Counted from the stretch's first letter, positions 1,364-61,392 are shown. The stretch is DNA of 64,000 nucleotides from Nitrospirota bacterium (GCA_963710375.1 CAVPZX010000004.1:192001-256000); one strand, 5' to 3'. Made by a program: numbers and translations. The notes: generated by a model not told the origin, from the sequence alone.

Positions 1364-1425
1364 AGTAAGATGAAGGTTAACGCAGGCACTTTTTTTATCT
1401 TAACCTTAACCTTTACCTCTGCCTG
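1364..1425. repeat. Hexamer (AGGTTA/TAACCT) inverted tandem-repeat element, left arm degenerate
   Basis: aaggttaa...ct taacct taacct ttacct ctgcct directly after the mutS2 stop. Confidence 0.6.
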
Positions 1426-1462
1426 CTTTTAGTAGTAACATAGGTTACTTTTCCAGGAGGGG

Positions 1463-2848
1463 ATGCGGATAAAGCTTATGGCAAGGTGTGAGTACATTAT
1501 GGAGCGCATCGAGAGCAAGAAGAACGATTTCCTCTCCTATGATTTCTCCCAGACAGAAAGCAATGCGTTGGCGGCATTTTTTGATCTGGCACAGGAGTTT
1601 GACGGTATCGAGGATTTTTATTGCCTATGCACTGCCATCCCAAAGGCGTTCTTTGGCCTGGAAGCCAGATTTTATGTTATAGATCCCAAAGTGAATGGTT
1701 TGGCGCTTGTCGCCAAAACCGAAGAGGACGGATCTCCGCTGCGTACAGAGCCCCCTTCTTTTTTGCAGCCGGGCGAACGTCCCTATCATACCGACAGCTC
1801 AAGCCTGGTACTGACGATCCGGGGGAAAGAATTCTTAATTGACCATCTGCCTTTTAAAACTAAGGACAACGTACTCGGACTTCTAGAAATTTATCCCGAT
1901 GCTGGTGTTGACTCCCACCGCGAACTTTTTTTCGAAAAATTTGCCAACAGGATTGGTTTTAATATTCATAACCGTTTTCTTGTCGATAGAAACGTTGAGC
2001 ACCTCAAATTCATCAAGTCTCTCGTTGCAGATATTGAGCACAATATAATCATTCCTAATATGGTATATAAACTTTTTCTGAGACGGCTGAAGGGCAAGAT
2101 CACAAAGAATGTGGAAATAGAGCATCTCCTTTACAGTCTGTCAATTGATGACCCCTGCGACAAGTCCCAAATGGACCTTGCCCTTACAGAGCTTATGGAC
2201 GTTAACCATGGGTTGAATGAGGAGTTTGATAATATTGAAAAGCATTACCGGAATATGAGCCTGTTTCTCGAAACCCTGCTGCGCAGGAGCCATTTTGATC
2301 AGGGTCGCCTTACCTTGCGCACTACACCCTGCAATATAAAGCAGGATGTAGTACAGCCGCAGCTTGAGCGGTTCCTCGATCACTTCAGGGAAATGGGTAT
2401 TGCCATCGATGATAAATTCGGCGGTCTTCCAAGTGAAGAGACCATAAGCGTTGTGGATATCGGGCTTGTCGCCCAGGTGTACGCCAACCTTTTTTCGAAT
2501 GCCCTCAAATATACTGAGGAGGTTGTTACCTCTACCGGCGAAACGAAAAAATACATAGCATACGGACGCGAGATTATCAGGGACTATTTCGGGCCAGGCA
2601 AAGACGGGGTAAAATATAATGTTTTCAGCACGGGGCCGCACATCGACCCGGATGAACGGGAAAAGATATTTGAAGAGGGATACCGGGGATCCAATGCAGT
2701 CAAGAGGCCAGGGACCGGACATGGCCTGGCATTTGTAAAAAATGCCGTTGAGATACACGGAGGCGTGGTCGGATATGAGGCAACCCAATACGGCAATAAC
2801 TTTTATTTTGTCTTCCCCAGAGACAACGATAACGTAACAAGCCTATGA
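1463..2848 (+). CDS. Orphan sensor histidine kinase (HATPase_c), no obvious transmembrane segment; start may be 1499
   Basis: N-box NLFSNALKY, IFEEGY, GTGHGL, HGG; atypical H-box DIEHNIIIP. Confidence 0.85.
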   Translation: MRIKLMARCEYIMERIESKKNDFLSYDFSQTESNALAAFFDLAQEFDGIEDFYCLCTAIPKAFFGLEARFYVIDPKVNGLALVAKTEEDGSPLRTEPPSFLQPGERPYHTDSSSLVLTIRGKEFLIDHLPFKTKDNVLGLLEIYPDAGVDSHRELFFEKFANRIGFNIHNRFLVDRNVEHLKFIKSLVADIEHNIIIPNMVYKLFLRRLKGKITKNVEIEHLLYSLSIDDPCDKSQMDLALTELMDVNHGLNEEFDNIEKHYRNMSLFLETLLRRSHFDQGRLTLRTTPCNIKQDVVQPQLERFLDHFREMGIAIDDKFGGLPSEETISVVDIGLVAQVYANLFSNALKYTEEVVTSTGETKKYIAYGREIIRDYFGPGKDGVKYNVFSTGPHIDPDEREKIFEEGYRGSNAVKRPGTGHGLAFVKNAVEIHGGVVGYEATQYGNNFYFVFPRDNDNVTSL

Positions 2849-2881
2849 AGCAGCGATTGATGGGTAAAGATTGGTGGTCAA

Positions 2882-3355
2882 TTGAAAACTCATGACCGGC
2901 CTTTTGTGGAAATTTATGCGGACGGCGCTTGCAGCGGCAATCCTGGCGTAGGCGGATACGGCGCTATCCTGCGTTCGGGGCAAAAAGAAAAGGAACTGTC
3001 AGGATGCGAACAGATGACAACCAATAATAGGATGGAACTGTTCGGTGTCATTACTGCGCTTGAGCTGCTTAAGAAACCGTGCAGGATAAGGGTGATAACC
3101 GATTCGACTTATGTGGCTAAAGGAATGACCGAATGGGTAAGCGGATGGATCAGGAACAAGTGGAAAACCTCTCAGAAAAAGGATGTGCTCAACAGAGATC
3201 TCTGGGAGAGGCTGCTTAAGGCGGCCGGTCCGCATGAAATAGAATGGACATGGGTCAGGGGACACAACGGGCATTATGAGAATGAGAAATGCGACCGGCT
3301 GGCAAGGAGTGCTATAGAAGCTTGCAGGGAGCGTATAGTCCGTGAAAAAGCCTGA
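2882..3355 (+). CDS. rnhA: Ribonuclease HI
   Basis: [36 protein letters not shown]. Confidence 0.97.
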
Positions 3356-4562
3356 ACTGCTTGCCCCTGCTGGTGATTTCGAGAAACTGAAGACTGCGGT
3401 ACACTATGGGGCTGACGCGGTTTATCTCGGCGATTCGAGATTCAGCCTGAGGGGGAAAGCCGGAAACTTTGCAGGCGAGGAGTTGCGTGCCGCAGTTCAC
3501 TATGCTAGGGCGCATAATGTACGCGCGTATGTAACGGTCAATATTTTTCCTCACAACAGGGACCTGCCTGCCCTAGAAGAGCATATAGAGCAACTTGGCG
3601 AAATAGCACCTGATGCCGTTATCGTATCCGACCCTGGACTTTTTGTACTCGTCAAAAAAAAAGCACCCAATTTACCGCTTCATATCAGCACCCAGGCGAA
3701 CATCACCAATGTTGCTGCCGCGCGGTTCTGGGAGGACAGCGGTGCAAGGCGGCTTGTACTTTCCAGGGAATTGTCGCTGGATGAGATAGGAGAAATCCGT
3801 AAGAAGACTTCTATCGAGCTCGAAATTTTCGTCCACGGCTCAATCTGCATATCCTATTCAGGACGGTGTTATATCAGCAGCTTTCTCGCTTCCCGTGGGG
3901 CCAATACCGGGGAATGCACTAATTCTTGCAGATGGAACTATGCACTGGTGGAGGAAAAGCGCCACGGGGAGTATTTCCCTGTTTTCGAGGACAGCCGTGG
4001 CACGTATCTGATGAGTTCCAAAGACCTGTGTATGCTGCCGCACCTGCCTCTTCTCATGGGCGCGGGCATTGACAGCTTTAAGATAGAAGGGAGGATGAAG
4101 GGGATCAATTATGTTGCGGGGGTTGTGAAGGTCTACAGGGAGGCGATAGATTCGATTAAAGCCGGCGAAGCCTATTGCGTAAAAAAAAGGTGGGCTGACG
4201 AGCTTGCAATGTTCAGCAGCAGGGGGTATACCACCGGAATGTTCTTTGGAAAACAGCCGGACTCCGATTATAATTTTGACGGTGAAAGCTACCGTATGAG
4301 CCATGAACTGGTAGGCGTTGTGTTGGAAGTGAACGATGGGCATGCCAGGATTGCGCTCAGGAACAGGCTTGATAAAGGCGATGTCGTTGAATACCTCACT
4401 CCAGGCCTTGAAGGAACCCCTTTTCCTGTTGATTCGATGCTCGATGAGGAGGGCGCTGCAATAACCTCTGCAAGGAATGAAGATATAATTTCAATCAATG
4501 CTCCAAATGGGATCAGGGGAAATGACCTCATTCGCAGGAAGAAGGTTATTCTGCATACTTAA
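3342..4562 (+). CDS. U32 family peptidase-like protein (TrhP/YegQ-like)
   Basis: [44 protein letters not shown]. Confidence 0.92.
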
Positions 4563-4651
4563 TAATGCTTTCCGGCTTGCGGATGATTATCTGAGGTTTC
4601 GCTGCTGAGGTATCATGATTTGACATGTCTAATCTCCTTTTATTGACTGCA

Positions 4652-5790
4652 TTAAAAATGCCTGTCGGCCTCTTCTCCGGACAGCCTTTTGACCCCCGGC
4701 TCCCAGGCGCTTGTCTGCCAGTTATCTAAGTGGCCCGGCTCGGCGATCCAGGGTGGAACGCCGAGGGAGAGATATCTGGACATGGAATGGATGTAAGGTT
4801 CATACATCTTGCGCAGCTCAATAAGCTGTTTGTCAACGTCGTCTCCCTTCCTGAGGTCTATCCCCACATTCGAGAGTTCAGCGCGAAGACGCACAAGTTC
4901 GGCAGGCGGCAGGCGGTCAACTTTCAGTTTGTGCGGCGGACGGTTGAGTACGAAGGAGAGGTCTACTATCGCGTGCCTCGCGATCGCAAAGGTGAGTTCC
5001 GCCTGTCTTTTGCAGACTGCCTTCCATCCCCGTGATGACAAGAGCGCAGGTGTCCAGAATCGCCGATAGCGCGGCGACCCACGACTGGTTATCGTGCTGT
5101 GATCTGAAATAGACAAGTACGGGATAGGAAAGATGGCTTTCCATTATCTCAGAAGCCCACAGCTCCCACTCGCCGAGGCTGGCGTAGAAGCGCTTCGTTC
5201 ACGTTATGCCGGCATTGCCTGAGAAGCATACCAGCGGCTGTAGGAGGCGAGCCTGCGCGTGCATCGAGGATTGAAATGTTCACCTCACGCCTTGAGAAAG
5301 ATTGGTTAAGAGCCGGGAGGTATCCTATCACAAGGGCCAGCAGACCCAGGCCGATGCCGGATTCGATTACTGTGAGCGCACGCGCGCAGACCGAAACAGG
5401 CCTGACATCTCCGAGCCCGAGTGTGAAAAAGGTGGTCCCGCTCAAATAAAGATCTGTGGCAAAACCTGCCGTCCCTTCAGGGGTGTTGACCGGCGATCCC
5501 ATGCCCCAGTTCAGTAAGGCAAACCCAAAGACAGCCCCTGCAGCCCAGATGCTCAAAAGTACGATAAGCGAAAGAGGGCCATAATAACTCAGATATGTCT
5601 CCTGCCGTTTCCCCTTCACAATATGCCTGATAAGAAAGGACCAGAGCATCCACGTGTAACGATAGAAAAGTCTTGTGAGCCGGTACTTCCGCGTTACTCT
5701 GCGCGGAAGTACTATGGTCTCGAAAGCATCCCAGAGCACGAGAAAGATGATTGCTACACCCAGGATTGCGAAGAGAAAGATCACCCGCAC
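4652..5790 (-). pseudogene. Potassium channel family protein broken by two frameshifts (~5178 and ~5018); pseudogene or sequencing error
   Basis: Pore/filter-like TTFFTLGLGD in ORF 5149-5790. The protein continues as LGEWELWASEIMESHLSYP in a second frame and VCKRQAELTFAIARH in a third. Confidence 0.8.
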
Positions 5791-5875
5791 CTCCGCTGAT
5801 ATTTAGTACCCAAGATATAGAAATCATAGCACTAAAAAAATGGGAAATCTATTATGTGGCAGGCAAAGTTTGTTC

Positions 5876-6109
5876 TCAGTTGTCTTTTTGCAATCTGGGC
5901 TTTGCGCCCAGTTTATACAGGACATTTGCCATCAGGCAGAATCCGGTAAATGCAAACACGATGAGGTTGATGCCTACCAGTGCTGTCAGTATCAGCCAAT
6001 ATGGGCTGTGGACCCATGCCAGTACAGCGCTCGACAGGGAGAATATGCCTGCTATGAGCCAGATAATCCGTTCGAGATACCACGTATCGGTTTTTGCAAT
6101 ATACATCAC
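5876..6109 (-). CDS. DUF2892 (YgaP-like) small membrane protein
   Basis: ERIIWLIAG...[17 protein letters not shown]; overlaps the RND stop. Confidence 0.9.
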
Positions 6110-9100
6110 GTCCTCCTTTTTTTATACATATAATAAAGTACAGGTACCATTGTCCTCGACAGAAATGTCGAGGCAACCTCACCGGCCATAAGCGATATTG
6201 CCATGCCTTGAAATATGGGATCAAACAGAATCACCGACGACCCCACTACTACCGCAGCAGCGGTAAGAAGCATTGGCCTGAACCGTATGACGCCGGCCTG
6301 AACTACGGCTTCTTTGAGTGGCACCCCCTCTGAGAGTTTAAGCTCGATAAAGTCAACCAGTATTATGGAATTTCTGACGACTATTCCGGCCCCTGCAATG
6401 AACCCTATCATGGAGGTTGCTGTAAAGAACGCCCCCATCAGTGCATGGCCCGGCAAGATTCCTACAAGTGAAAGCGGGATCGGGGCCATGATGACAAGCG
6501 GCACCATGAAAGACTTGAACCAGCCTACGACCATTATATAGATCAAAACCAACACCGCCGCGAAGGCGATGCCCAAATCCCTGAAGACCTCATAGGTAAT
6601 GTGCCATTCGCCGTCCCATTTCATGGAATAGGTATTTTCGAGCCAGGGCTGGACAGTGGAATATTGCTTCAGCTCATATCCACCGGGCAATTTAATTTTG
6701 CTCACAGCCTGCTTCATTTTTAATATGGCGTAGACAGGGCTTTCTTCACTTCCGGCAACATCGCCGGTCACATATACAACCCGTTTCAGATTCTTGTGGT
6801 AAATGGTTTTGTCCTCTATCCCGTTCTTTATTTTCACCAGTTCGGAAAGCGGTACCATGGTACCAGAAGGCGAGGGCACTCCAATCTCTCCAAGTTTGTC
6901 AACTCCTGCCCTTTCGGCAAGCGGCGCCCTCATAAAAAGCTGAACAGGCTCCTTATCTTTTTCAATGTGTACCAGCCCCGCAGTCATACCCCCCAGTACC
7001 GCCTTGAGCGTCTGTGATACCGCTTCGGTACTGATGCCGTTGTATGAAGCCTTTTCCTTGTCGACATCAAAGGATATCTTCTGCTGGTCATCCTCAACGG
7101 ACCAATCGGTATCAACTACACCACCCGTTCTGTTGAATATTTCCTTTATCTTCCTTGCAACTGCTATCTGCCCATCGAAATCAGGCCCATAAATTTCAGC
7201 GACGAGAGTGCTCTGCACAGGAGGGCCGGGCGGTATTTCAACTACCTTGATCCTCGCGTTATAACGGTCCGCGATTTTTTTTATTCCCGGCCTTATCCTT
7301 TTTGCTATATCGTGGCTATGTGCCGTTCTTTCATCCCGTGGAACAAAATTGACCTGTATATCGGCTTCGTTCCTTCCCGAACGCAGGTAGTAGTGGCGCA
7401 CCAGACCGTTGAAATTAAACGGCGCCGCAGTGCCGATATAAGACTGATAATTGGTGACCTCCGGTACTGTTTTCAGGTATTCGCCGATCTGCCGTGCCAA
7501 CTCAGCAGTGTCCTCAAGTGCAGCGCTCTCTGGCATGTCGATAATGACCTGAAGTTCGTTCTTGTTGTCAAAAGGCAGCATTTTAACGGTCACAAGCTTC
7601 AGCGGGACAAGTGCGATGGCGCTGCCGAGCATCAGAAGAACGAGGATTATTCCTATAGTTCGCTTCCTGCTGTTTTCGAGCAGCCCCCTTAGATTTTTTT
7701 CATAAACGCGGTTCAGCACAGCAAAGAAGCGGCTTTCCGCTTTTTCTTTCTGCTCCTCACCGCCCCTTTTCGTACCTTTAAGCACGATATAGCTCAACCA
7801 GGGGCTGATAATGAAAGCAATAAGCAGGGAAAGAAGCATGGCGGCTGATGCGCCAACAGGAATAGGCCGCATATAAGGACCCATCAGACCTGACACGAAT
7901 GCCATTGGCAGGAGCGCGGCTATGACCGCAAAGGTGGCCAATATGGTGGGATTCCCCACCTCGTCAACTGCGAGCACCGCAGTTTCCCGGTCAACAGATT
8001 TTGCCCTGAAATGGCGGTGTATGTTCTCGACAACAACAATGGCATCGTCAACCAGAATGCCTATAGAAAAAATGAGGGCGAAGAGTGTGACCCTGTTGAG
8101 TGTATAGCCATGCATATAATTGACCAGGATGGTAAGGGCCAGGGTAACCGGCACTGCAACGCCAACTACTAACGATTCTCTCCATCCCAGGGCGAGCGCG
8201 ATAAGGATTGTTACAGAGATGGCTGCGATGAGCATGTGCTCAAGAAGCTCGTCGGATTTTTCTTTGGCGGTGACTCCATAGTTCCGGGTAGTAGTGATCT
8301 CTACATCCGAGGGGATCACCGTTCCCTTTATTGCAGCTATTTTCCTTAGGGCCCTTTCTGCGATGTGTGTTGCATTGGTCCCTTTTTTCTTTGCTATCGT
8401 AATAGTAACAGCCTCGTATTGCCCTGCGGGGCTGCCCTGATCACCATTCAATGCTTCTTTTTCTTCACGAGCAGCAGCCGGGCCAAAGCCCATAAAAACA
8501 TACTTTGCAGGCTCTTCCGGGCCATCGCTTATACTTGCCACGTCTCTTAAGTACACCGGCCTGATGTTTGAAACTCCTACCACCACATTTCCGACATCCT
8601 GGGCGTTCTTAAGAAATGAGCCTGTTTCAACCAGGAAATCATTATTGCCCGAGGGGAATTCACCTGAGGGCAGCACAAAGTTGGCTTTTTGCAGCGTGCC
8701 GGCAATCTGCAGCGGTGAGAGAGAGTACGCTCTAAGGCGTATTGGATCCATGACTATTTTTAGCTGCCGTTTCTGACCGCCTATAATGGTAGTTTCAGCA
8801 ACGTCGGAATCCTTTTTCAGCTCCCCCGCAACCTCCTGTGCAACCCGCCTCAGCTCATATCCGTTATACCTCCGGCTCCAGAGGGTGAATGTAAGTATGG
8901 GAACTTCGTCAATTGATTTAGGCTTGACCAGAGGTTGAGATACGCCGGGAGGAATTTTGTCGTAATTGGACATTAATTTGTTATAGAGTTTTACAATGCT
9001 GCTCTCCATGTCCTGCCCGACATAAAACCTGACAATCGCCATGCTCATGCCGGGTCTTGAGATGCTATAGATGTATTCGACACCCTTTATTTCCCATAGG

Positions 9101-9327
9101 AACTTCTCCATAGGCCTGGTGACAAGCTCTTCGACTTCTTTTGCAGAGGCGCCGGGGTAGGAGACCATCACATCGATCATCGGGACAACTATCTGCGGCT
9201 CTTCCTCACGCGGCGTTACGACCACTGCAAATACGCCCAGGACCAGCGAGGCAATGACAATCAGGGGAGTCAGCCTGGAGTTGATAAAGGCCCTTGCGAT
9301 GCGGCCTGCCAATCCTAAGTGCTTCAC
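6106..9327 (-). CDS. RND efflux transporter permease (AcrB/AcrD/AcrF family)
   Basis: 1073 aa; [34 protein letters not shown]. Confidence 0.96.
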
Positions 9328-10517
9328 TGTAGCTTCATCCCGGAAACTATGCCGCCATCGACAGCGCTCGATATACTATCAATGATGACCCGGTCATTTG
9401 GATTTATTCCAGAAAGAATTTCGACATTATTGCCGTAATGACTGCCCGGCCTCACGAGACGGAATGAAATGATGCCGCCCTGATCAACCGCGTATACGCC
9501 TGTAAGCTCTCCTTTTTGGACTATTGCCTTGTCCGGTAAGACAATGGCAATCTTCTTACCGGTGGGTATCTTTACGCGGGCGTAAAGTCCTGTCCGTAAT
9601 AAAGGACCTGTGAGAGCAATCTTCGCGATGAACGTTCTTGACAGGGGATCGATTGAGGGGACAATTTCGGTGATCCTTCCTCTCAACTGCTGGTTGGTGG
9701 CGTCAACGGCAATATCGACAGGTGTTCCGGTAGTGACTTTACCGGTGAGATGCTCGTCAAGATTGGCTTCAAGGACAAATGAGGACACATCTTCCACTGT
9801 AAGGAGGGGAACTCCAGGCACAGCCATGCTGCCGCGCTCTGTTTTCTTTTCGGTTATAACGCCTGAGACCGGGGATAATATGGTCGTGAAATCACGATTG
9901 ACCCGCGCCTCGTTGAACAATGCCTTGGACCTCTCGTAATCCAATTCGGCGATTTTTTTCTGTGTCTCTATCTGATCTATCTCCTGTTGTGACAGCGCCT
10001 TCTCGTCATAAAGCTTCCTGTATCTCCCGTATGTTATATCAGCCAGGGATCTGTTTTGCTCTGCAGACTCAACGGCTTTCTCAGCAGCGACAACTCTTTG
10101 CACTGCATCTCTGTCATCGACTGTCAGGAGCACCTGTCCCGCGTGGACCCGGTCGCCTTCTTTCACCCTGAGCGAGGTGACGGCGCCCAGCGTTCTTGAG
10201 GCAATCTGGCTAATGGTTTTCGCCCTGATGGTGCCTGATGTTTCAAAATATTCCTCTACCTCGGATGGGTGCACCTCTGTGACAGTTACCCCATCTACTG
10301 TTTGCCTGCTTACAGCTGCGGGCCCGACCTTTTCCTTGCAGCCGGACAACAAAATGCAAAGAGCAAAGAGCATAGCGGAGATAAAGGCGAGTCCGATGCG
10401 GTTGCCTGAACTTGAGAAGTTGAGAACTTGTGAAGGTGTGAACTTATGAAGGTTTAGTTGCTCAACTTCGCAACTTCCCATCTTCTCACGTTCAATCTTT
10501 CCTTTGTGGTTAGTCAT
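9324..10517 (-). CDS. RND periplasmic adaptor (membrane fusion lipoprotein)
   Basis: Lipobox LLSGC, V.EGDRV..GQ, I.SPVSGVI; GGAGGG SD before the ATG at 10517. Confidence 0.93.
10408..10500. repeat. Octamer (GAAGTTGA/TCAACTTC-like) inverted tandem repeat embedded in frame in the MFP N-terminus
   Basis: Minus strand: gaagatgg gaagttgc gaagttga ... cttcataa gttcacac cttcacaa gttctcaa cttctcaa. Confidence 0.6.
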
Positions 10518-10530
10518 ACTTCCCTCCATT

Positions 10531-12740: not shown

Positions 12741-12831
12741 TTCACAGAGTAGAGAATGAGAGCACTGAGACACATCAGCATTACTGATGTGCTGCAAACT
12801 CATTTGTCTAAACTCTGCGTTCATCGTGGTT
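12741..12831. repeat. Degenerate CACAGAG/CTCTGTG inverted repeat element with internal hairpin
   Basis: ttcacagag...gcactgagacac ... ctctgcgttcatcgtggtt; resembles the copy at 18228. Confidence 0.45.
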
Positions 12832-18227: not shown

Positions 18228-18330
18228 AACCACGGAGGCACTGAGACACAGAGTTATACATGAGCAAAAAGAAAAAACCCTTTTTTTTATCGGCTGTTAT
18301 CTTTCTCTGTGCCTCTGTGTCTCTGTGGTT
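18228..18330. repeat. Octamer (CACAGAG-type) inverted tandem-repeat element
   Basis: aaccacggag gcactgag acacagag ... ctctgtgc ctctgtgt ctctgtggtt. Confidence 0.85.
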
Positions 18331-18889: not shown

Positions 18890-18998
18890 ACGTGAACCGT
18901 GAAACGTGAATCGTGAATCGTAACAACCGTGAATCGTGAAAACAGGAAAATTTTTCTTAAAAATCTTTTACTTTTCGTTTCACGATTCACGATTCACG
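18890..18998. repeat. Heptamer (CGTGAAT/ATTCACG) inverted tandem-repeat element
   Basis: About 6 cgtgaa(t) units, AT-rich spacer, then ttcacg attcacg attcacg; supplies the tlpA stop codon. Confidence 0.85.
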
Positions 18999-19637: not shown

Positions 19638-19825
19638 CAAATTTTTGGTAGTGGGCCAGTTTGTTTTTGCTCTGTATCACCTGGGTTATCAATAGTGGGC
19701 GAGTAACGCCGAGCCCACATATATAGAAGTGGCAACCACAGGTAATTCTCTTTACAGGCCAGTGATTGAATTGAACGGCTAATTGATACAGAGCAAAAAC
19801 AAACTGGCCCACTACCAAAAATTTG
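19638..19825. mobile_element. MITE-like element with perfect 42-bp inverted repeats
   Basis: 19638-19679 is the exact reverse complement of 19784-19825; 104-bp core; no transposase. Confidence 0.7.
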
Positions 19826-19878: not shown

Positions 19879-20265
19879 ATGCCGGTATTTGTTATCCATG
19901 AACACCACGCTAGGCATCTGCATTACGATTTCAGGCTTGAGATGGATGGCGTGCTCAAATCATGGGCGGTGCCCAAAGGGCCTTCAATGAATCCTGCCGA
20001 CAAGCGGCTCGCCATCATGGTCGAGGACCACCCGCTCCATTATGGCTCTTTTGAAGGTACAATACCGGAAGGACTTTACGGGGCCGGAACCGTTGCCATT
20101 TGGGACCATGGAACGTATACCTTGGTTAACGGAGATTTAGCTCAGGGCAAAATAGAACTGCAGCTGGAAGGGGAAAAACTCAGGGGCGTTTTTGTCCTGA
20201 CAAGGATGAAAGGGAAGGACAAGGAGTGGCTGCTGATAAAGAAAAGGGACGCATACGCCCTGTAA
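19879..20265 (+). CDS. Stand-alone LigD 3'-phosphoesterase domain protein
   Basis: [53 protein letters not shown]. Confidence 0.93.
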
Positions 20266-26353: not shown

Positions 26354-27028
26354 ATGAGAAAAGGTATAGGTAGAGGTAAAGGTTTAGGCTTAGGTAAACA
26401 TAGGTTTTTTTTATTTTTTTTCTTAACCTTAACCTATACCTTTGCCTTGTTTTGCCTCTTTTCATGCAAGGGAAAAGAAACAACACAGGCAGGAAAGCAG
26501 GGTCCGGTATATAACCCCTATTCGACCGAATCGGTATATCTTGAAACAAGGCAAAGGGTGGAAGCTCATCCGGAAGATGCTGAGGCCTGGTTTCATCTCG
26601 CTAATTTATATGAAAGCAACGGGCAATATGCCGAAGCGATTGACGCTTATAAGAAGGTTGCGAAGCTGAGGCCTAAACAGGGATTCGTGTATGTCAAAAT
26701 AGGGACCTCTTATGACCAGATCGGGAAGCCCCGGGAAGCGGTGGAGGCATTTAAAAAGGCGGTGCATTTTATGCCGGGCTACGCGGTGGCATACAATAAC
26801 CTGGGGATAGCTTACGGAAAACTTGGCAGGAACCGCGAGGAAATAGCTGCGCTGAAGAAGGCTTTGCAGCTTCGTCCGCGATATGTCACCGCACGGTACA
26901 ATCTGGGAATTGCGTATCTGAGAGTTAAAGACAGGAAGGCGGCGCTGCAGCAATATGAGTTTTTAAAGGATGTCGAAACTGGGGCAGCAGAGGCGCTGAA
27001 AAAAGAGATCGACAGCAGTGGAAACTGA
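26354..27028 (+). CDS. TPR-repeat lipoprotein
   Basis: Lipobox LFSC; TPR motifs AYNNLGIAY, ARYNLGIAY. Confidence 0.88.
   Translation: MRKGIGRGKGLGLGKHRFFLFFFLTLTYTFALFCLFSCKGKETTQAGKQGPVYNPYSTESVYLETRQRVEAHPEDAEAWFHLANLYESNGQYAEAIDAYKKVAKLRPKQGFVYVKIGTSYDQIGKPREAVEAFKKAVHFMPGYAVAYNNLGIAYGKLGRNREEIAALKKALQLRPRYVTARYNLGIAYLRVKDRKAALQQYEFLKDVETGAAEALKKEIDSSGN
26362..26447. repeat. Hexamer AGGTTA/TAACCT element embedded in the TPR signal peptide coding region
   Basis: aggtat aggtag aggtaa aggttt aggctt aggtaa ... taacct taacct atacct ttgcct. Confidence 0.75.
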
Positions 27029-29627: not shown

Positions 29628-29715
29628 CAGGTCAAGGTTGAGGTTAAGGTTAAGAGAGAGTCTTCTTTGGCTGTTTTTCAATTTTAACCTTAACCTCAAC
29701 CTTAACCTTAACCTG
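29628..29715. repeat. Hexamer AGGTTA/TAACCT inverted tandem-repeat element
   Basis: caggtc aaggtt gaggtt aaggtt ... taacct taacct caacct taacct taacct g. Confidence 0.9.
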
Positions 29716-30181: not shown

Positions 30182-30267
30182 AATTAAGAATTACGAATTA
30201 AGAATTAAGAATTGTGGAAAACATTTTGCTCATTTATTCCTAATTCCTAATTCCTAATTCCTAATTC
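30182..30267. repeat. Heptamer (AATTAAG/CCTAATT) inverted tandem-repeat element
   Basis: aattaag aattacg aattaag aattaag aatt gtggaa ... (aattcct)n; supplies the coaX stop. Confidence 0.9.
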
Positions 30268-33560: not shown

Positions 33561-33568
33561 GGAGGAAT

Positions 33569-33600
33569 GGGGTCCGCGAAAAGTAGAAGACTTTTTGGGG
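33569..33600. repeat. About 33-bp REP-like hairpin, copy 1
   Basis: ggggtccgcgaaaagt-agaa-gactttttgggg; related copies at 49954 and 51978. Confidence 0.7.
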
Positions 33601-33614
33601 CTTGTTAGAACTGT

Positions 33615-39588: not shown

Positions 39589-39705
39589 CGTGAATGGTGA
39601 ATCGTGAATAGTGAATGGCAAAACATAAAGACTGTTAATAATACTGACTGTATGACGCTCTTATACAAGCCGTCACGATTCACTATTCACGATTCACCAT
39701 TCACG
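39589..39705. repeat. Heptamer (NGTGAAT/ATTCACN) element with a perfect 28-bp stem
   Basis: 39589-39616 is the exact reverse complement of 39678-39705. Confidence 0.92.
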
Positions 39706-43800: not shown

Positions 43801-43893
43801 CAGGTTAAGGCTGAGGCTGAGGTTAAGGAAAAAAGACTAAATGAGCGAGAATTGCTTGCCCTAACCCTAACCCTTAACCTTAACCTAAACCTG
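43801..43893. repeat. Hexamer AGGTTA/TAACCT element between rpsH and rplF
   Basis: caggtt aaggct gaggct gaggtt aagg ... ccctaa ccctaa cccttaa ccttaa cctaaa cctg. Confidence 0.88.
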
Positions 43894-43912: not shown

Positions 43913-44455
43913 ATGTCACGAATAGGTAAAAAGCCCATTACTATTCCGCAGGGAATAAACGTTGAAGTCAATCAGGACGTTATTAAAGTTAAAGGGAAGA
44001 AGGGCGAACTGAACTATACCTTCCCCGAAGGCATCAAGATATCAGTTGCCGATGGGAAGATCATTATTGAGAGGAGTAGTGATTCAAAGTCGCACAGGTC
44101 ACTCCACGGCCTTGCCAGAAGCCTTGTGTCTAACATGGTGAACGGTGTATCGCAGGGATATACAAGGGTACTGGAAATAACCGGCATTGGTTACCGGTCC
44201 CAGGTGAAGGGGACCAAACTTGCGTTTACATTGGGGTATTCTCATCCAATTGAATATCAGCTTCCCGAGGGGATAAAGGCTGCTGTTGATGAGAAGCAGA
44301 CGACTATCACATTGACCGGCATGGATAAACAACTGCTTGGTCAGGTTGCTGCCAATGTAAGGGAGTTAAGGCTGCCCGATGCCTATAAAGGCAAGGGAGT
44401 CAGGTATCAAGGTGAGCGGATCAAATTGAAGGCTGGAAAGACGGGTAAAAAATAG
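43913..44455 (+). CDS. rplF: 50S ribosomal protein L6
   Basis: MSRIGKKPI, LGYSHP, YKGKGV. Confidence 0.99.
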   Translation: MSRIGKKPITIPQGINVEVNQDVIKVKGKKGELNYTFPEGIKISVADGKIIIERSSDSKSHRSLHGLARSLVSNMVNGVSQGYTRVLEITGIGYRSQVKGTKLAFTLGYSHPIEYQLPEGIKAAVDEKQTTITLTGMDKQLLGQVAANVRELRLPDAYKGKGVRYQGERIKLKAGKTGKK

Positions 44456-44522
44456 GCTAAGGCTAAGGTTAAGGTTGAGAAAAAAGACTTAACGGGTTTT
44501 TCTTAACCTTAACCTTAACCTG
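44453..44522. repeat. Hexamer AGGTTA/TAACCT element between rplF and rplR
   Basis: taggct aaggct aaggtt aaggtt gag ... ct taacct taacct taacct g. Confidence 0.88.
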
Positions 44523-44542: not shown

Positions 44543-44902
44543 GTGATTGTAAAGGAAGAGGCGAGGCAAAGGCGCCACAAAAGATTGAGGAAAAAGGTAT
44601 CCGGCAGCGTTGAGCGGCCGAGACTCTGCATTTACAAGAGCCTCAACCATATATATGCGCAGATTATCGACGATACGAAAGGTCATACTCTTATTACCGC
44701 ATCCTCGCTCGATAAGGAGTTGAAGGATGAAGGGGGACACAAGGGCAACACAGCCATGGCCAGACGGGTGGGTTTGCTGATAGCGTCGCGGGCGGTTCCT
44801 CTGGGAGTTAAAAAGATCGTATTTGACCGCGGTGGTTATAAATATCATGGTCGCATGAAAGCCCTCGCTGACGGTGCACGCGAAGGCGGCTTGGAATTTT
44901 AA
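44543..44902 (+). CDS. rplR: 50S ribosomal protein L18
   Basis: [24 protein letters not shown]. Confidence 0.98.
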
Positions 44903-44908
44903 GTTGAT

Positions 44909-44994
44909 AATTACGAATTACGAATTAGGAATTACGAATTGTGGAAGAACATTATGGTCATTCATTGTTAATTCTTAATTCTTAATTCGTAATT
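44909..44994. repeat. Heptamer (AATTACG/CTTAATT) element between rplR and rpsE
   Basis: aattacg aattacg aattagg aattacg aatt gtggaa ... cttaatt cttaatt cgtaatt. Confidence 0.9.
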
Positions 44995-45006
44995 AAAAAA
45001 GGAGGT

Positions 45007-48092: not shown

Positions 48093-48311
48093 ATGGCGAA
48101 AGAAGAAAATATTGAAGTGTCGGGAACAATCGTCGAAACTCTGCCAAACGCGATGTTCAGGGTTGCTCTCGAAAACGGCCAAATTATACTTGCATACGTA
48201 TCCGGCAAGATGCGGATGCATTTTATAAAGATATTGCCTGGGGACAAAGTTACTATCGAGCTTTCCCCATATGATCTGACTAAGGGCCGTATAACGTATA
48301 GATTCAAATAG
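48093..48311 (+). CDS. infA: Translation initiation factor IF-1
   Basis: [24 protein letters not shown]. Confidence 0.99.
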
Positions 48312-48374
48312 TGAACGGCGGTTTGCAGTACGTGCCTACTGCCTGCTGTTTAGTATCTTTTAGGGGGATGAATT

Positions 48375-49948: not shown

Positions 49949-49953
49949 CGGAA

Positions 49954-49985
49954 TCCCCGAAAAGTCGTCAGACTTTTTTGGGGTG
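49954..49985. repeat. REP-like hairpin, copy 2
   Basis: tccccgaaaagtc-gtca-gac(t)nggggt. Confidence 0.7.
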
Positions 49986-50078
49986 TAAAGTAGCCGGGTG
50001 CGTCCGAAGGATATCTGAAAAGAGTTCCTCGGTAATAATTTATGAAACATAGAAAATAAAGGCATAGGAGACCGTATT

Positions 50079-51662: not shown

Positions 51663-51712
51663 ATGGCTTTTTTATGGCCATGAGTCCTAAGGCATAGGTT
51701 ATAATAACTATA

Positions 51713-51973
51713 ATGCAATTTGACGGTATTACGCTAATCGGATTAGTAGCAGCCGTGCTCACGACCTCATCATTGGTTCCCCAGGTGATAAAGACTTGGA
51801 AGCTGAAAGAGACGAGGGACATCTCTCTTTTGATGTTTATTTTCATGGGGGCCGGTTTGTTTCTGTGGATGATATATGGTTTTTTTTTGCACAACCTGCC
51901 GATTATTGCAGCAAACGGCGTATCTTTTACTTTTGTTTTGATAATCCTCTTCTTTAAAGCCAAATACGGGTAA
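51713..51973 (+). CDS. SemiSWEET (PQ-loop) transporter
   Basis: 86 aa, 3 TM, LVPQVIKTWK, DIS, LWMIYG, PIIAAN. Confidence 0.93.
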   Translation: MQFDGITLIGLVAAVLTTSSLVPQVIKTWKLKETRDISLLMFIFMGAGLFLWMIYGFFLHNLPIIAANGVSFTFVLIILFFKAKYG

Positions 51974-51977
51974 CCTG

Positions 51978-52011
51978 CACCCCAGAAAATCTTTGACTTT
52001 TTGGGGACCCC
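51978..52011. repeat. REP-like hairpin, copy 3 (opposite orientation)
   Basis: Reverse complement reads ggggtccccaaaaagtcaaagattttctggggtg. Confidence 0.7.
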
Positions 52012-52062
52012 GTGCGCTGACCTACTACCTATTAGTCTTTCTTATTTAGGCTATTCGTATAG

Positions 52063-52130
52063 TTGACATCAAAGCCTTTGTTTGCTAGAGTTTGATTGAA
52101 AGCCAGAAAAAAAAGAGTTGCACTATGCAA
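52063..52130 (+). promoter_or_regulatory. Hydrogenase operon promoter and downstream palindrome
   Basis: TTGACA-17 nt-TAGAGT (TG extension); GTTGCA-cta-TGCAAC at 52116-52130. Confidence 0.6.
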
Positions 52131-52188
52131 CCATGGACTTCCTAATGAAACATATAGTCATAACAGCAGGTGATTTAAAGAGGAATAT

Positions 52189-53265: not shown

Positions 53266-53268
53266 GCT

Positions 53269-54108: not shown

Positions 54109-54109
54109 T

Positions 54110-56189: not shown

Positions 56190-56650
56190 GTAGTTTCAAC
56201 TCGTCGAAGAATAAATGCTCCACTTCTCCTGCTTTCCCTATTATGTTAGGTGCAACTTTTTTTGCTCCTGCCACTAAGGGCGACATGCTGTCTATGTTGT
56301 TCAACTCATTGATTATTTGTATTTTCATTATTGAATAGGTGATTACTGTAAATATTTGTTGACAGCAACGGACTAAATGTATTATCGACAGTCAACATCT
56401 CGAAAGGCTTTTGAGGTCTCAAAAAATGTCATTTAGAAAGAGGCGAAGTAATTTCGTACTTGCTAACAAGTTGATTTCTAAAGATTGCCTGGTCGCTCCA
56501 CTCACCGCAATGGCATTGTAACATACTGTTTGTTGTAGGCACATCCTTTTTATAGGTTAATCAGGCATTTTTTTTGCAACCTTTAATGTCTGAATGGGAC
56601 CTCTAAAAAAACAGTGATAACTATAATGGTTAGGGGAGCGGGACTCAGAG

Positions 56651-57601
56651 ATGTCACTTAATGATCTTACTGCTGTAGTGGTCGATGATACTGAAGAATG
56701 CCGCACCTTAATCGAAGAAGTAACAAGGATGGCCGGTTTTAAGGTATCAAGTTTCTCGTGTCCGTTAGAGGCTTTGAACTACGTGGCTGAGCATCAGATA
56801 GACATGGTTTTCACGGACTTCAGGATGCCGAAAATGGATGGCCTGACCTTTATGCGGGAAGCGCGCAAGTTACACCGTGATATACCTATTTTTATTATAA
56901 CGGGGGAGCCTAACGCTAAAGAACTGAAGGACCTTTCGCTGGAGGACCCAGCCTCGGAATTATTTGTCAAACCATTTTCTCCTCTGGATTTCTTGGAGCG
57001 GGTAAAACCTCTGGCCCTGCGCCGTCAGTTCATTAAATTTATTGGCGCGTACCGCCTGAAAGAGAACGTATTCGAGAACCACTGCGTACGGGTAGGACTA
57101 TACTCGAAAATTATAGCAGCCGGGTTGAACTGGGACAAAAATGAGCAGGATTTGATCTATCACGCTGCCCAGTCGCATGACATAGGCATGATCAGCATCC
57201 CGGACCATATTTTCTTTAAGTCGGAACGACTGACGCGCGACGAAATGGAGATGGTCAGGAAGCACAGCAGCATTGGCTCCAGTATACTGCCAAAGAACTC
57301 GAACCCCTATTTTGCGACAGCTTCCATCGTTTCGCTGACGCACCACGAGAGGGTCAACGGCAGCGGCTACCCGTCCGGACTTGCAGGAGATGCTATTTCG
57401 GTCTACGGAAGGATTACTGCCCTGTCCGATGTTTTCGACGTTCTGACGTCCACAAGGCCTTATAAGGCAGCATGGGACTTCAAAAAATCGCTCTCTTTTG
57501 TCAGCGACAACAGGGACATGAATTTTGATCCCGTGCTAGTCAACGTTTTTGTCAGGAATGTCAACAGAATAGAGGAGATTTACACCAGACTCGCGGACTG
57601 A
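56651..57601 (+). CDS. Response regulator with HD-GYP phosphodiesterase domain
   Basis: VVDD, DFRMPKMDG, KPF; HDIG, HHERVNGSGYP, DVFD, RPYK. Confidence 0.92.
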   Translation: MSLNDLTAVVVDDTEECRTLIEEVTRMAGFKVSSFSCPLEALNYVAEHQIDMVFTDFRMPKMDGLTFMREARKLHRDIPIFIITGEPNAKELKDLSLEDPASELFVKPFSPLDFLERVKPLALRRQFIKFIGAYRLKENVFENHCVRVGLYSKIIAAGLNWDKNEQDLIYHAAQSHDIGMISIPDHIFFKSERLTRDEMEMVRKHSSIGSSILPKNSNPYFATASIVSLTHHERVNGSGYPSGLAGDAISVYGRITALSDVFDVLTSTRPYKAAWDFKKSLSFVSDNRDMNFDPVLVNVFVRNVNRIEEIYTRLAD

Positions 57602-57657
57602 AGCACCGGAATATATATATGATAATTTTACAATCTCTTTGATAAGGAGGAACATGT

Positions 57658-58026
57658 ATGAAGGTAGGTATATTTTTTTCTCTTGGTGGAGAAATTATCT
57701 CGGATTCAGTACATGTCGAAGACGGCGAGGCTGTTGGTGACGCAATTCAGTACGGGAACCACTATGAGTTCTGGAAGGCACTTAAACCGAGGACATCCAC
57801 GGAGCATTCATTCAAAGTATGGCCCTATTATGCATTTCCGCGCGGTAAAGTTGTTTGCATACCAGGAGAGCGTGTGTGTCGCATTTATGCAGACCCCTGT
57901 CTGAAACGCAGGGATATCGCATCAGTCATAAAGCACTTTGGCAACAGAGACTTTGCAATAGAGGTCAAAAATGACAAGCAATATCAATGCGCCAAATGCA
58001 ACAAATATTTTGCTCTTGTCGCCTAA
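57658..58026 (+). CDS. Hypothetical protein (PRG.V motif, C-terminal CxxC)
   Basis: AAGGAGG SD; 122-aa ORF. Confidence 0.7.
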   Translation: MKVGIFFSLGGEIISDSVHVEDGEAVGDAIQYGNHYEFWKALKPRTSTEHSFKVWPYYAFPRGKVVCIPGERVCRIYADPCLKRRDIASVIKHFGNRDFAIEVKNDKQYQCAKCNKYFALVA

Positions 58027-58089
58027 CCAGCACTCCGGTAGATAACCTGCCCCTGCCGCTACCATCCTTATGCCACAACCCAGCTTAAA

Positions 58090-58118
58090 TTGACAAAGCT
58101 CAGGGGTTAAGTTAAACT
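58090..58118 (+). promoter_or_regulatory. tig-clpPX promoter
   Basis: TTGACA-17 nt-TAAACT. Confidence 0.7.
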
Positions 58119-58163
58119 AAAATGTTACATATCAAGCACTAATTGCAGAAGGAGAATTGTAAA

Positions 58164-59405
58164 TTGTTAAAGGCACTTGAAGACATATCATCAACCAAAA
58201 AACGGCTCAAAATAGAAATTCCGGCTGATTCCATAGAAGGTGAAATCAGGAAAGGTCTCATGGATGCTCAGAAGAAGGCAAAATTTCCGGGTTTTAGGCA
58301 AGGCAAGGCGCCGATGACGCTGGTCGAGAAGAAATTCAGCAAGGATATCGAGACGGAAGTTTTGAAAAACATGGTTTCTGAATATTATCTGCAGGCGGTC
58401 AAGGAGGCTGACATAAAACCGGTTTCGCGGCCTGCCTTGGAAGAATCTTTTGATTTTAAGAGGAATTCGGATCTTTCTATGACCATGACGGTAGAGGTCA
58501 TGCCTCAAATAGACAACCTGTCGTATGAGAATATACCTGTCAAGAATGTTCCGGTCGAAATAACGGACGAGGAAGTAGACACCGTTATGAGCAATCTTGC
58601 TGACGAGCGGGCAACCTATGAAGCATCGGACAGTCCGATACAGGCAGGTGACCTGGTGACTATTGATTATACTGTCAGGGAGGACAACGCTTTAGTCAAA
58701 GACGTGGTCCTCAAAGTCGGCAGTGGCCCCTACCCAAAGGAGTTTTTTGACGGTCTCGAGGGCAGAAAGAAGGATGACGAGATCGAAATTGAAGCCGCTT
58801 TTCCAGAGGACATGCAATCACCCTATGCCGGTAAAAAACACTCTTTTATCATCAAGATCAGAGAGGTGAAAAAAAAGACAATCCCTGCTCTTGATGACGA
58901 ATTTGCAAAGGATATAGGGCTTGAGAACCTGGAGCAGGTGAAAGAAAGGGTCAGGGGAAATCTCTTAAATGCCAAAAACGGACAGGCTGAAAAGGCCATG
59001 CAGCGTGAAATCCTCGACAAGCTGCTTGACGCCCATCAGTTTGAAATTCCGGAAAGCATGCTTAATCACGAGCTTGCCGGCATTATAAGCGAAATACGGG
59101 CATCTGGAAAAGATGACAGGTCCGATGAGGCGTTGATTCAAGAATTAAGGCCTGGCGCCGAAAAGAGTGTTAAGGCGTCCGTTCTATTGGAAATGATCGG
59201 AGAAAAGGAAGGGACAGCTGTTTCAGAAGATGAAGTCAGGGAGGAAATTGCGGCTATGGCGCAAAGATTTCGTATTACTCCTGAAAACATTATAAAATAT
59301 TATGTAACCAGAGACGGCTCGCTGGAGGGATTGCGGCATTCCCTTTTTGAGAGAAAGGTCCTTGCACTTCTGCTTGCCAAAGCTAAAATTGAAAAAGGAG
59401 ACTAA
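58164..59405 (+). CDS. tig: Trigger factor
   Basis: PGFRQGKAP, GDLVTIDY, LDDEFAK; TTG start after AAGGAG. Confidence 0.96.
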   Translation: MLKALEDISSTKKRLKIEIPADSIEGEIRKGLMDAQKKAKFPGFRQGKAPMTLVEKKFSKDIETEVLKNMVSEYYLQAVKEADIKPVSRPALEESFDFKRNSDLSMTMTVEVMPQIDNLSYENIPVKNVPVEITDEEVDTVMSNLADERATYEASDSPIQAGDLVTIDYTVREDNALVKDVVLKVGSGPYPKEFFDGLEGRKKDDEIEIEAAFPEDMQSPYAGKKHSFIIKIREVKKKTIPALDDEFAKDIGLENLEQVKERVRGNLLNAKNGQAEKAMQREILDKLLDAHQFEIPESMLNHELAGIISEIRASGKDDRSDEALIQELRPGAEKSVKASVLLEMIGEKEGTAVSEDEVREEIAAMAQRFRITPENIIKYYVTRDGSLEGLRHSLFERKVLALLLAKAKIEKGD

Positions 59406-59408
59406 GGG

Positions 59409-60011
59409 ATGAGCATAGTTCCAATTGTAATTGAACAGACCGGGCGGACCGAGAGGGTATATGACATATATTCAAGACTGCTTAAGGACAGGATAATTTT
59501 TATTGGGATGCCTATAGATGACAACGTAGCAAATGTGGTTATTGCTCAGCTGCTCTTTCTGCAGACTGAAGACCCTGAGAAAGATATCCATATATATATC
59601 AATTCACCAGGCGGTGTTGTTTCTGCGGGCCTGGCAATGTACGATACCATGCAGTTTGTAAAGCCGGACATTGCAACTTACTGCATTGGCCAGGCCGCGA
59701 GCATGGGCGCGCTGCTTTTATGCGCCGGCACAAAGGGCAAGCGTTTTGCACTGCCCCATTCGAGGATTATGATTCATCAGCCTACTGCGGGATTTTATGG
59801 ACAGGCAACGGACATAGAAATCCAGGCCAAAGAGATTTTGAAAATGAAAGAGACACTGAACAATATTATGGCTAACCATACCGGACAGTCGTATGAGAAG
59901 GTCCATGACGATACCGAGAGAGATTATTTTATGTCTGGGGATGATGCCAAGGCATACGGCATTGTGGATGAGGTAATAGATTCGGCTAAACTTAAAAAGA
60001 AGGACCAATAG
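59409..60011 (+). CDS. clpP: ATP-dependent Clp protease proteolytic subunit
   Basis: [27 protein letters not shown]. Confidence 0.99.
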
Positions 60012-60059
60012 TCGGTCGATAACTGTTCGTTGTGAACGGTTGACGGAGTCGGAGGTTTT

Positions 60060-61298
60060 ATGGCACGGAAGATTAATGACGCGCTGCTTAAATGCTCTTT
60101 TTGCGGCAAGGGACAGGATGAGGTCAAGAAGCTTATTGCCGGTCCTACGGTTTATATTTGTGACGAGTGTGTCGGGCTATGCAATGAGATAATAGATGAG
60201 GAGTTGCATGTTCTCGATAAAGATTTTTCGAGGAAGCTTCCTGCCCCAAGCGAGATACATAAATTTTTGAACGATTATGTGATAGGACAGGAAAAGGCAA
60301 AAAGGGTGCTGTCCGTTGCTGTTCACAACCATTATAAAAGGATATTCCGGGGCTCTAAATCCGATGTTGAGCTTCAGAAAAGCAACATTCTGCTGATAGG
60401 CCCGACAGGAACGGGAAAGACGCTCCTTGCGCAGATACTTGCCAGGTTCCTCGATGTGCCCTTCACCATAGCTGATGCGACAACGCTGACCGAGGCAGGC
60501 TATGTAGGCGAGGATGTTGAAAATGTGCTCCTGAAATTACTGCAGGCAGCCGACTATGATGTGGAACGGGCCCAGAGGGGAATCATCTATATCGACGAGA
60601 TAGATAAGATAAGCAGGAAATCGGACAGCCCTTCAATAACGAGAGATGTATCAGGAGAGGGTGTCCAGCAGGCGCTTCTCAAGATAATCGAAGGCACTGT
60701 AGCCAATATCCCCCCGCAAGGCGGCAGAAAGCATCCTCAGCAGGAATACATACAGCTCGACACCTCTAACATCCTCTTTATGTGCGGCGGTGCATTTGTG
60801 GGGCTTAATGACATTATAGAGCGCAGGACGGGCAAAGGGAGAATAGGCTTCGGGTCCGGGGTGGTTGTCAAAAAAGACAAGGGAGCGGATGTGCTCGGCC
60901 TTGTTGAACCTGAGGACCTGATGCGCTACGGACTTATCCCAGAATTCGTAGGCCGTCTGCCTGTTATCGCAACTCTGGTGGAGCTGGATGAGGCCGCGCT
61001 GATAACGATATTGACTCAGCCCAAAAATGCGTTGGTAAAGCAGTACCAGAAACTATTTATGATGGACAATGTGAGGCTGAAATTTACCGATGGGGCGCTT
61101 GCCGCCATAGCGAAGAAAGCCGTTGAGAGAAAAACCGGCGCTCGCGGTCTAAGGGCTATCCTTGAAGACGTAATGCTTGATGTGATGTACGAGATACCCT
61201 CAAAGAGGGGTGTTGCAGAGTGTATTATAAACGAGGAGGCCATCTCACAGAAGGACCGGGCTATTCTCGTGTACGAAGATCAGGCTGAATCGGCATAA
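60060..61298 (+). CDS. clpX: Clp protease ATP-binding subunit
   Basis: [28 protein letters not shown]. Confidence 0.99.
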
Positions 61299-61303
61299 AT
61301 TAG

Positions 61304-61392
61304 AGTGAGCAGTTGGCAGAAAGCAGTAAATGACATACCTTATACAGACGATTTAACTTGTAGCTTGCTTTTCTTACTGCCTATTGCTTACT
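61304..61392. repeat. Degenerate heptamer (AGTAAGC/GCTTACT) inverted tandem-repeat element
   Basis: agtgagc agttggc agaaagc agtaa ... ttact gcctatt gcttact; overlaps the DUF721 stop. Confidence 0.6.

Follow-up and report, generated by a model that had tools for sequence, protein, structure and literature searches.

Among the short-repeat families of bacteria are the STRRs of cyanobacteria. In the 23S rRNA of Coxiella burnetii, an intervening sequence (IVS) carries an open reading frame (ORF) of the S23p/PF05635 family, heptamers precede S23p and RNase III excises the IVS; the same source calls the function of the TIGR02436/S23p protein unknown (PMC4990558). IVP ORFs have been reported in rRNA insertions of the candidate phyla radiation (10.1101/2024.02.27.582315). 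Rehm et al. (2015) described inverted heptamer pairs, with the units GGGAATC in Xanthomonas and GGGGA(C/T)T in Nostoc (PMC4692102), and Bertels and Rainey described the REPIN-RAYT system (PMC3337134). For the TAACTGA repeats of Beggiatoaceae, MacGregor (2015) suggested that a repeat-binding protein may be a mobile element (PMC4679880). Here, we analysed a stretch of 64,000 nucleotides from a Nitrospirota bacterium (GCA_963710375.1 CAVPZX010000004.1:192001-256000, the window in what follows), together with the rest of its genome and its congeners. The subject is a set of elements that read as a short unit repeated in tandem, a spacer, and the reverse complement of the array, and whose units appear to follow the clades of a four-helix-bundle protein encoded between the arms of some copies.

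Inverted repeat elements are abundant and turn over between close relatives

The genome (G000) comprises 3.19 Mb in nine contigs and its assembly is 98.8% complete; the closest named relatives of one of its proteins suggest Nitrospirota, and the window is C4:192001-256000. Elements were detected by a periodicity scan in which arrays of 6-9-nt units were paired with inverted arrays at most 130 nt away. This gave 238 inverted-arm elements genome-wide, a lower bound, and none in any of three block-wise triplet shuffles. Only the shuffles count as controls; the 'rev' (18) and 'comp' (69) pairings are not independent, since near-symmetric units match real elements. About a dozen unit families share the genome, with labels that are heuristic and in a few cases wrong: AGGTTA (71 elements), GTGAAT (53), AGGCAAT (23), GAAGTTGA (19), AATTAAG (17), AATGTTG (13), AGGCAAA (12), GCAAAGA (8), AGTAAGC (6), CACAGAGA (6), GAATCGGA (4), AGGACTG (4) and other (2). 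Beyond these label counts, AGGCAAT and AGGCAAA were taken as one family. The arms are tandem direct repeats of 6-8 nt, not imperfect palindromes of the repetitive extragenic palindromic (REP) kind, the unit profiles hold no conserved GGG, and the 5' arm is purine-rich in 234 of the 238 elements. An Rfam search of the window gave no match.

Orthologous junctions were compared with congeners whose flanking genes are about 90% identical, one of which (G003) has 6% contamination. Between rplR and rpsE, all seven congeners with this junction read TAA-GGAGGT-ATG, and the window has 98 extra bases; contigs about 95% identical to the window, from two other studies (runs X7 and X8), lack exactly these 98 bases, with a 3-nt ambiguity, and the insertion is bounded by a 3-nt AAG repeat. 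The rplB-rpsS junction, compared in six genomes of the genus, holds a GTGAAT element (here), an AGGCTAT-type one (G003, G005, G008), an AGGTTA one (G007) or nothing (G006). The junction after the thioredoxin-like gene is empty in G007 and G008 and holds a CACAGAG-type element in G003. That after usp is filled by the AGGTTA family in G005 as well and by an AAGGCTA heptamer in G006, and that of coaX by AGG[CT][AT]AT-type elements in G003, G005 and G008, being empty in G006. The rpsH-rplF junction has an AGGCAAT-type element in G003 and is short (22 nt) in G005 and G008, while the rplF stop site carries other families, remnants or nothing in congeners. The same holds for a 23S rRNA loop: G000, G005 and G007 have AGGTTA there, G003 has AGTAAGT in one rRNA copy and a GAAGTTG-type unit in the other, G002 has the GAAGTTG type, G006 a worn insert, and G001 and G018 the empty 18-nt helix.

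Elements thus come, go and change family from one close relative to another, and the presence/absence variation that the original prediction, made by a model from the window's sequence, had asked about is found as empty sites, filled sites and sites filled by another family. Over five regions, junctions filled here are also filled in G003 in 15 of 25 cases (10 of them by another family) versus 4 of 66 where the site is empty here; the corresponding tallies are 11/20 versus 4/59 for G005 and 1/11 versus 0/44 for G008. End repeats at four clean or near-clean empty/filled pairs, judged by eye and from few, diverged cases, measured 3, about 8 (with a mismatch), 1 and 0 nt, and no fixed target duplication is evident on these few cases.

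Gene-less elements are copied to unrelated loci

Spacers were compared pairwise among 214 elements. Fifty-six pairs scored at least 16, versus one in a composition-matched shuffled null, and they include subfamilies of 8, 2, 2 and 2 copies with unrelated flanks, lying in either orientation relative to transcription. That near-identical spacers recur at unrelated loci shows that gene-less elements are copied, as the mobility proposed in the original prediction implies. Segmental duplication as the origin of the spacer-sharing pairs was rejected, because the flanks differ; the exception is the pair at C2:686597 and C2:1070228, which belongs to the two rRNA operons. The prediction had named two shared spacers. 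One, beginning 'aattgtgga', recurs in nine co-directional elements (five sense, four antisense); the other, 'gaaaaaagact' at 43801 and 44453, is an A-rich stretch of only about 10 nt and weak alone. Spacers are A-rich in the first half and T-rich in the second, and the halves of one element pair no better than swapped halves.

Some elements depart from the common form. Hybrid pairs, in which a purine arm faces the pyrimidine arm of another family, occur at C3:148470-148556 and C5:212712-212767 of G000. At C5:318588-318833 and C5:267795-270480, stretches of about 50-70 bp that contain an arm form higher-order tandem duplications, in one case with the start of the next gene included.

Elements are concentrated at tight gene junctions

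Placement was assessed against our own, not curated, calls of 3219 genes. The 238 elements fall into co-directional (169), convergent (29) and divergent (24) gaps, and 16 lie inside calls (222 outside). With the element removed, co-directional gaps of at most 40 nt hold 114 elements (8.5 expected by length), tight convergent gaps hold 23 (1.7 expected) and long co-directional gaps hold only 7 (61 expected). In 43 long gaps, 24 elements begin no more than 20 nt from the stop codon (5.7 expected). An arm overlaps the upstream stop in 62 of the 169 co-directional elements, and the purine arms of most heptamer families have stop codons in about two to three reading frames.

Other copies stand elsewhere. 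One lies between tRNA-Ile and tRNA-Ala, and both 23S rRNA genes (C2:686597, C2:1070228) carry a gene-less element in a helix loop, where 138 nt replace 6 model positions near position 283 and are predicted to fold as a long stem. In-frame copies of 25-35 codons occur inside conserved-looking enzyme genes (C2:426695, C2:993057, C5:208999, C5:210276, C6:63351, C4:31266), which we take to resemble NadD, KdsB, RfbG, RfbH and RimO. Given the copies in the 23S loop, between tRNAs, in divergent regions and in frame inside genes, elements probably survive at stop codons rather than recognise them as a target; the non-random placement at stop codons that the original prediction described stands. A role as intrinsic terminators inside the S10/spc operons seems unlikely.

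Elements or their pyrimidine arms also encode signal-peptide-like, hydrophobic N-termini (26354-26480 and 10350-10375 of the window; C8:168705, C8:187470 and C7:73981 of G000), which may reflect exaptation or tolerated insertion. At about 90% identity between genomes, the elements already rewrite gene ends, signal peptides and one rRNA loop at high rates, which matters for annotation and for operon evolution.

The repeat unit follows the clade of a four-helix-bundle gene enclosed by the arms

A profile search of the genome found six genes that match TIGR02436/PF05635 above cut-off, and all six sit between repeat arms, with a purine arm upstream and the complementary arm downstream. The six genes have six different units. 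All six cassettes are in sense, follow an upstream gene and lie in protein operons, none in rRNA; the purine arm adjoins or overlaps the start codon of several. Among paired solo arms, the four-helix bundle was the only recognisable gene family found inside. The original prediction had offered four-helix-bundle and GxxExxY genes as candidate autonomous partners: copies whose spacer holds an ORF exist with the former, whose autonomy would be putative, while GxxExxY gave no match in the assembly. No further four-helix-bundle genes or remnants were found in the genome beyond one remnant at C5:278.3 kb, an element that retains the first ~21 codons of its cognate gene.

Units were related to proteins over 145 homologue loci with a match, from which five duplicates, the query locus and, separately, 11 truncated loci were taken out. 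Of 74 homologues from many phyla that share 45% identity or more with the AGGTTA-type protein of this genome, 59 have hexamer doublets of the AG[GA] type on both sides of the gene, in comparison to 0 of 54 other family members; 39 of these 54 show an inverted pair of another kind. A tree built from 83 rows (all rows outside the clade and every third row within it) groups units by protein clade; the GTGAAT, GAAGTTGA and AGGC[AT]A[AT] types form supported clades, and many deep forks stay open. As far as the sequences tell, the unit is thus one that follows the protein clade across phyla. The families that the original prediction took to be unrelated each match a clade of one protein family. Across 41 genomes, hexamer elements are present in all six that have an AGGTTA-clade gene, and 27 genomes have neither; L108, a homologue in a congener, has AATTACG arms. 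Three rare families are concentrated near their cognate gene, with 4/4, 7/19 and 3/8 elements within 60 kb of it versus 0.3, 1.3 and 0.5 expected from overall element density. None of the findings that the prediction had named as contrary to mobility, namely fixed sites, a lack of copies with an ORF and random placement at stop codons, was made.

Three observations concern the family more widely. Many four-helix-bundle copies have internal stops (L078, L085, L099, L110, L136, L172, L183), which fits high turnover. L124 is a divergent, Avd-looking member without an arm pair, and the gene of L120 runs into a long GATACC array that encodes DT repeats.

The partner protein is predicted to form a five-subunit ring

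The protein model (predicted local distance difference test score 94.6) matches 2GSC (Z 19.7), 2RLD (Z 16.5) and Avd (Z 14.9-15.1; root-mean-square deviation 1.5-2.3 A, 10% identity), so that XCC0516, BT_0352 and Avd are the nearest folds; beyond these, the fold search gave nothing above common helical bundles. Matches of the partner proteins to the bAvd Pfam family were below cut-off. Both PDB entries, 2GSC and 2RLD, comprise five chains, the former has been reported to be a homopentamer (PMC4990558), and all five protomers of Avd are reported to contact one RNA stem-loop (10.1101/2023.10.23.563531). By analogy, the partner protein is predicted to be a five-subunit ring. Residues Q39, N50, A52, E53 and E76 are invariant in 50 sequences.

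The number of repeat cores per arm peaks at 4-5, with few arms above. It is exactly five in AATTAAG (23/34), AATGTTG (22/26), AGGCAAT (21/44) and AGGCAAA (15/24) arms, four or five in 88 of 100 GTGAAT arms, four in 84/142 AGGTTA and 28/38 GAAGTTGA arms, and three in 11 of 12 CACAGAGA arms.

A candidate mechanism and its alternatives

With moderate confidence, we read these as REPIN-like, non-autonomous elements whose partner is not a transposase, that is, the four-helix-bundle (TIGR02436/S23p) protein, which putatively binds and mobilises them. Each unit family would depend on a matching four-helix-bundle protein, whose predicted five-subunit ring would likely bind the 4-5 repeat cores of each arm; the bound ring would then let the element be copied into transcribed DNA by another enzyme, probably one of the host. 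Gene-less elements may arise from loaded cassettes by deletion of the gene and may then spread at the DNA level, as REPINs do. Copies would survive where the harm is small, in the last codons of a gene, where stop-rich arms would close the reading frame, in the gap before the next ribosome-binding site or at the tip of an rRNA helix lengthened by the hairpin. An existing element would be neutral ground for the next insertion, which would explain the replacement of one family by another at one site. RNase III would probably trim the RNA hairpins, as with the Coxiella IVS.

Several results weigh against this mechanism. A catalytic partner was not found in the genome. For five of the 11 named unit families (46 elements), the assembly shows no cognate gene, and the family of the recent rplR-rpsE insertion is one of them; likewise, hexamer elements occur in 8 of the 35 genomes without a detected AGGTTA-clade gene, in three of these in large numbers. 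The agreement of clade and unit could partly reflect co-inheritance, kin not being independent, and AGA and AGG units within the clade were not told apart by any single residue. Where a family is abundant (AGGTTA, GTGAAT, AGGCAAT), its elements are not clustered near their gene, most spacers have no close relative, and just one deletion intermediate was found. The modal number of cores is four (AGGTTA, GTGAAT, GAAGTTGA) or three (CACAGAGA), not five. As for a specificity residue, F/L36 was the best column (14/14 versus 17/45) and was rejected, as it looks like a subclade marker.

It is possible, and we propose it only tentatively, that the elements form a widespread, transposase-free class of mobile element, in which a pentameric ring reads about five cores per arm by a clade-specific code and itself drives insertion, possibly through Q39, N50, E53 and E76; such a class would be the common source of S23p intervening sequences, of gene-less rRNA insertions and of the 6-8-nt repeat families of many bacterial phyla. 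That the host maintains the elements, the arms being selected binding sites or RNase III stems, the protein autoregulating via the arm over its own start and movement being confined to gene conversion or ordinary recombination, we consider unlikely. Such upkeep would fit the strong placement at stop codons and ribosome-binding sites, the frequent filling of the same junction in congeners, the purine arms over the starts of cassette genes, the RNase III gene that is present in the genome, and the translational role that MacGregor proposed for the TAACTGA repeats (PMC4679880). However, the ribosomal-protein junctions work empty in close relatives, families are freely swapped at one site, and in-frame insertions stand in conserved enzymes. 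Moreover, selection for a sense-strand hairpin was not detected, either as a bias of G.U over A.C pairs (175 versus 154, p 0.27) or in folding energy (86/169), and for 6 of 7 families an arm's own partner gives no better pairing than does another member of its family (p 0.03, uncorrected, for the seventh). The missing wobble bias, together with spacer subfamilies in both orientations to transcription, also speaks against a passage through RNA, in which RNase III would excise the hairpin or cassette RNA, an Avd-like ring would protect it and a reverse transcriptase supplied in trans would copy it back into DNA. We judge this route quite unlikely: the fold shared with Avd, the elements inside 23S rRNA, the depletion in long and probably untranscribed co-directional gaps and the RNase III excision of the Coxiella IVS, with heptamer repeats before its ORF (PMC4990558), would agree with it, but the assembly holds no RVT_1 match and the ORFs around the six cassettes include no reverse transcriptase.

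It is very improbable that the four-helix-bundle gene is a passenger and that REPIN-type movement is driven in trans by a nuclease such as an HUH (Y1) transposase. Two inverted arms with variable, unique spacers are indeed the REPIN build (PMC3337134), no fixed target duplication is evident in the few pairs compared, and the genome has a single Y1_Tnp gene; yet no repeat arrays lie within the 1.9 kb scanned around it, about a dozen units would all need the same enzyme, a passenger need not have a unit that follows its clade, and between paired solo arms no further gene family turned up. We give very little credence to de novo synthesis, in which a protein-controlled, telomerase-like activity would polymerise an arm and an A-rich tail onto a broken DNA end, two such ends being then joined. 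Arms do vary unit by unit and independently of their partner, hybrid arm pairs exist, and the A-rich and T-rich spacer halves lack element-specific pairing, all of which such a synthesis could produce; near-identical spacers at unrelated loci, however, show copying, and no polymerase or reverse transcriptase is linked to the cassettes. For the partnership of non-autonomous elements with the four-helix-bundle protein, the six protein-unit pairs side by side in this genome make recognition directly testable by swapping, and, if binding is confirmed, the small ring protein, with a repeat recognition particular to each clade, could serve as a programmable binder.

Elements and neighbouring features in the window

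All 13 coordinates listed in the original prediction hold inverted repeat elements as described (Table 1, which adds a solo arm). Eleven form long hairpins (z -3.3 to -11.3, folding versus 100 dinucleotide shuffles), the elements at 1364 and 12741 are worn, and the genome-wide detector finds nine of the 13. The predicted overlap with stop codons was borne out: it measures 5 nt at the thioredoxin-like gene, 7 nt at coaX and 2 nt at rplF, and the dciA (DUF721) stop lies inside the arm at 61304; four elements do stand in the S10/spc operons. The element at 10408 is an in-frame insertion and does not lie at a gene junction. Read on the + strand, the one at 26362 would encode a lipoprotein-signal-like N-terminus of the tetratricopeptide repeat (TPR) gene.

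Table 1. Repeat elements of the window, in window positions
Element	Position	Location	z
Worn AGGTTA family	1364..1424	3' of mutS2 stop; clear only in pyrimidine arm 1399-1424	-0.6
Solo GCAAAGA-family arm	10350..10375	In frame, signal-peptide region of efflux adaptor gene (- strand)	
GAAGTTGA family	10408..10488	In frame, N-terminus of HlyD-type adaptor gene (9324-10517, -)	
Worn CACAGAG type	12741..12815		-2.1
CACAGAGA family	18231..18327	Between two NosL-like genes	-7.9
GTGAAT family	18891..18998	Supplies stop of thioredoxin-like gene	
AGGTTA/AGGTAT family	26362..26443	At N-terminus of TPR gene	
AGGTTA family	29629..29714	After usp	
AATTA[ACG]G family	30182..30267	Supplies coaX stop	
GTGAAT family	39590..39704	rplB-rpsS	
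AGGTTA family	43802..43892	rpsH-rplF	
AGGTTA family	44454..44521	Overlaps rplF stop (rplF-rplR)	
98-bp insertion, AATTACG arms at 44909-44994	44901..44998	Between rplR stop and GGAGGT of rpsE	
AGTAAGC family	61304..61392	Convergent clpX / dciA (DUF721) junction	-3.3

The stretch 48311-48350, after infA, is probably a collapsed AGTAGGC-type remnant, and congeners hold full elements of several families there. Another short hairpin family, of the type CCCC.AAAA...TTTT.GGGG, is found at 33561-33614, 49949-50000 and 51974-52015, after rpsG, rpsD and the gene at 51713, and is variable among congeners. A distinct element resembling miniature inverted-repeat transposable elements, with 42-nt perfect inverted repeats, lies at 19638-19825; it has 19 near-full copies in the genome and many in congeners. 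The stretch 19879-20265 is a stand-alone gene for a LigD 3'-phosphoesterase domain (PF13298).

Comparison with described systems

As in the Coxiella IVS, as far as its published description is cited here, a complementary stem surrounds a gene of the same protein family and heptamer repeats adjoin the ORF. This genome, too, has two gene-less copies in a 23S rRNA helix, while the window elements are not in rRNA. Unlike the IVS, the six ORF cassettes stand between genes for proteins, and an ORF is missing from the copies in rRNA; there are also about 40 gene-less copies per gene and about a dozen units matched to protein clades. The heptamer pairs of Rehm et al. share the short unit, the array of about four units, the inversion, the purine strand close after the stop and the position between aligned genes; those pairs, however, comprise one family per genome, are read as G-quadruplexes and are 83% conserved between two species (PMC4692102). 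In the portion of that text drawn on here, no partner gene is named ('xcc0516' and 'four helix' occur 0 times; PMC4692102). Here, in contrast, most units have no GGG, turnover is fast and a cognate gene exists.

With the REPIN-RAYT system, in the part of its description cited above, our elements share two inverted, family-specific arms, a variable spacer, many mostly extragenic copies and several families with a gene of their own. The arms differ in being tandem direct repeats rather than palindromic REPs, and a single arm pair surrounds the cognate gene, whose product is a four-helix bundle instead of a tyrosine transposase. The TAACTGA repeats are likewise heptamer arrays of 2-6 units inside ribosomal-protein operons; they differ as direct repeats upstream of start codons with S1, Csp and Csr as candidates, and in the sections cited neither the four-helix bundle nor S23 nor 'intervening' occurs (PMC4679880). 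Avd of diversity-generating retroelements has the same four-helix fold and is described as a pentamer that binds nucleic acid (PMC6182149; 10.1101/2023.10.23.563531); the partner protein differs in its low identity to Avd and in a genome where no reverse transcriptase was found. The link between gene and repeat was not found in print, in a search of main texts that covers few subscription journals, and the gene lists of Rehm et al. could bear on it.

Were the proposed partnership true, three puzzles would become one system, namely the function of TIGR02436/S23p proteins, the origin of rRNA intervening sequences and the over-represented heptamers (PMC4692102, PMC4679880). The system is partly known in pieces and, as far as the literature search reaches, undescribed as a whole. 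What is added here is the presence of six matched pairs in one genome, the swapping of families at the 23S loop and at ribosomal junctions, and the copying of gene-less elements.

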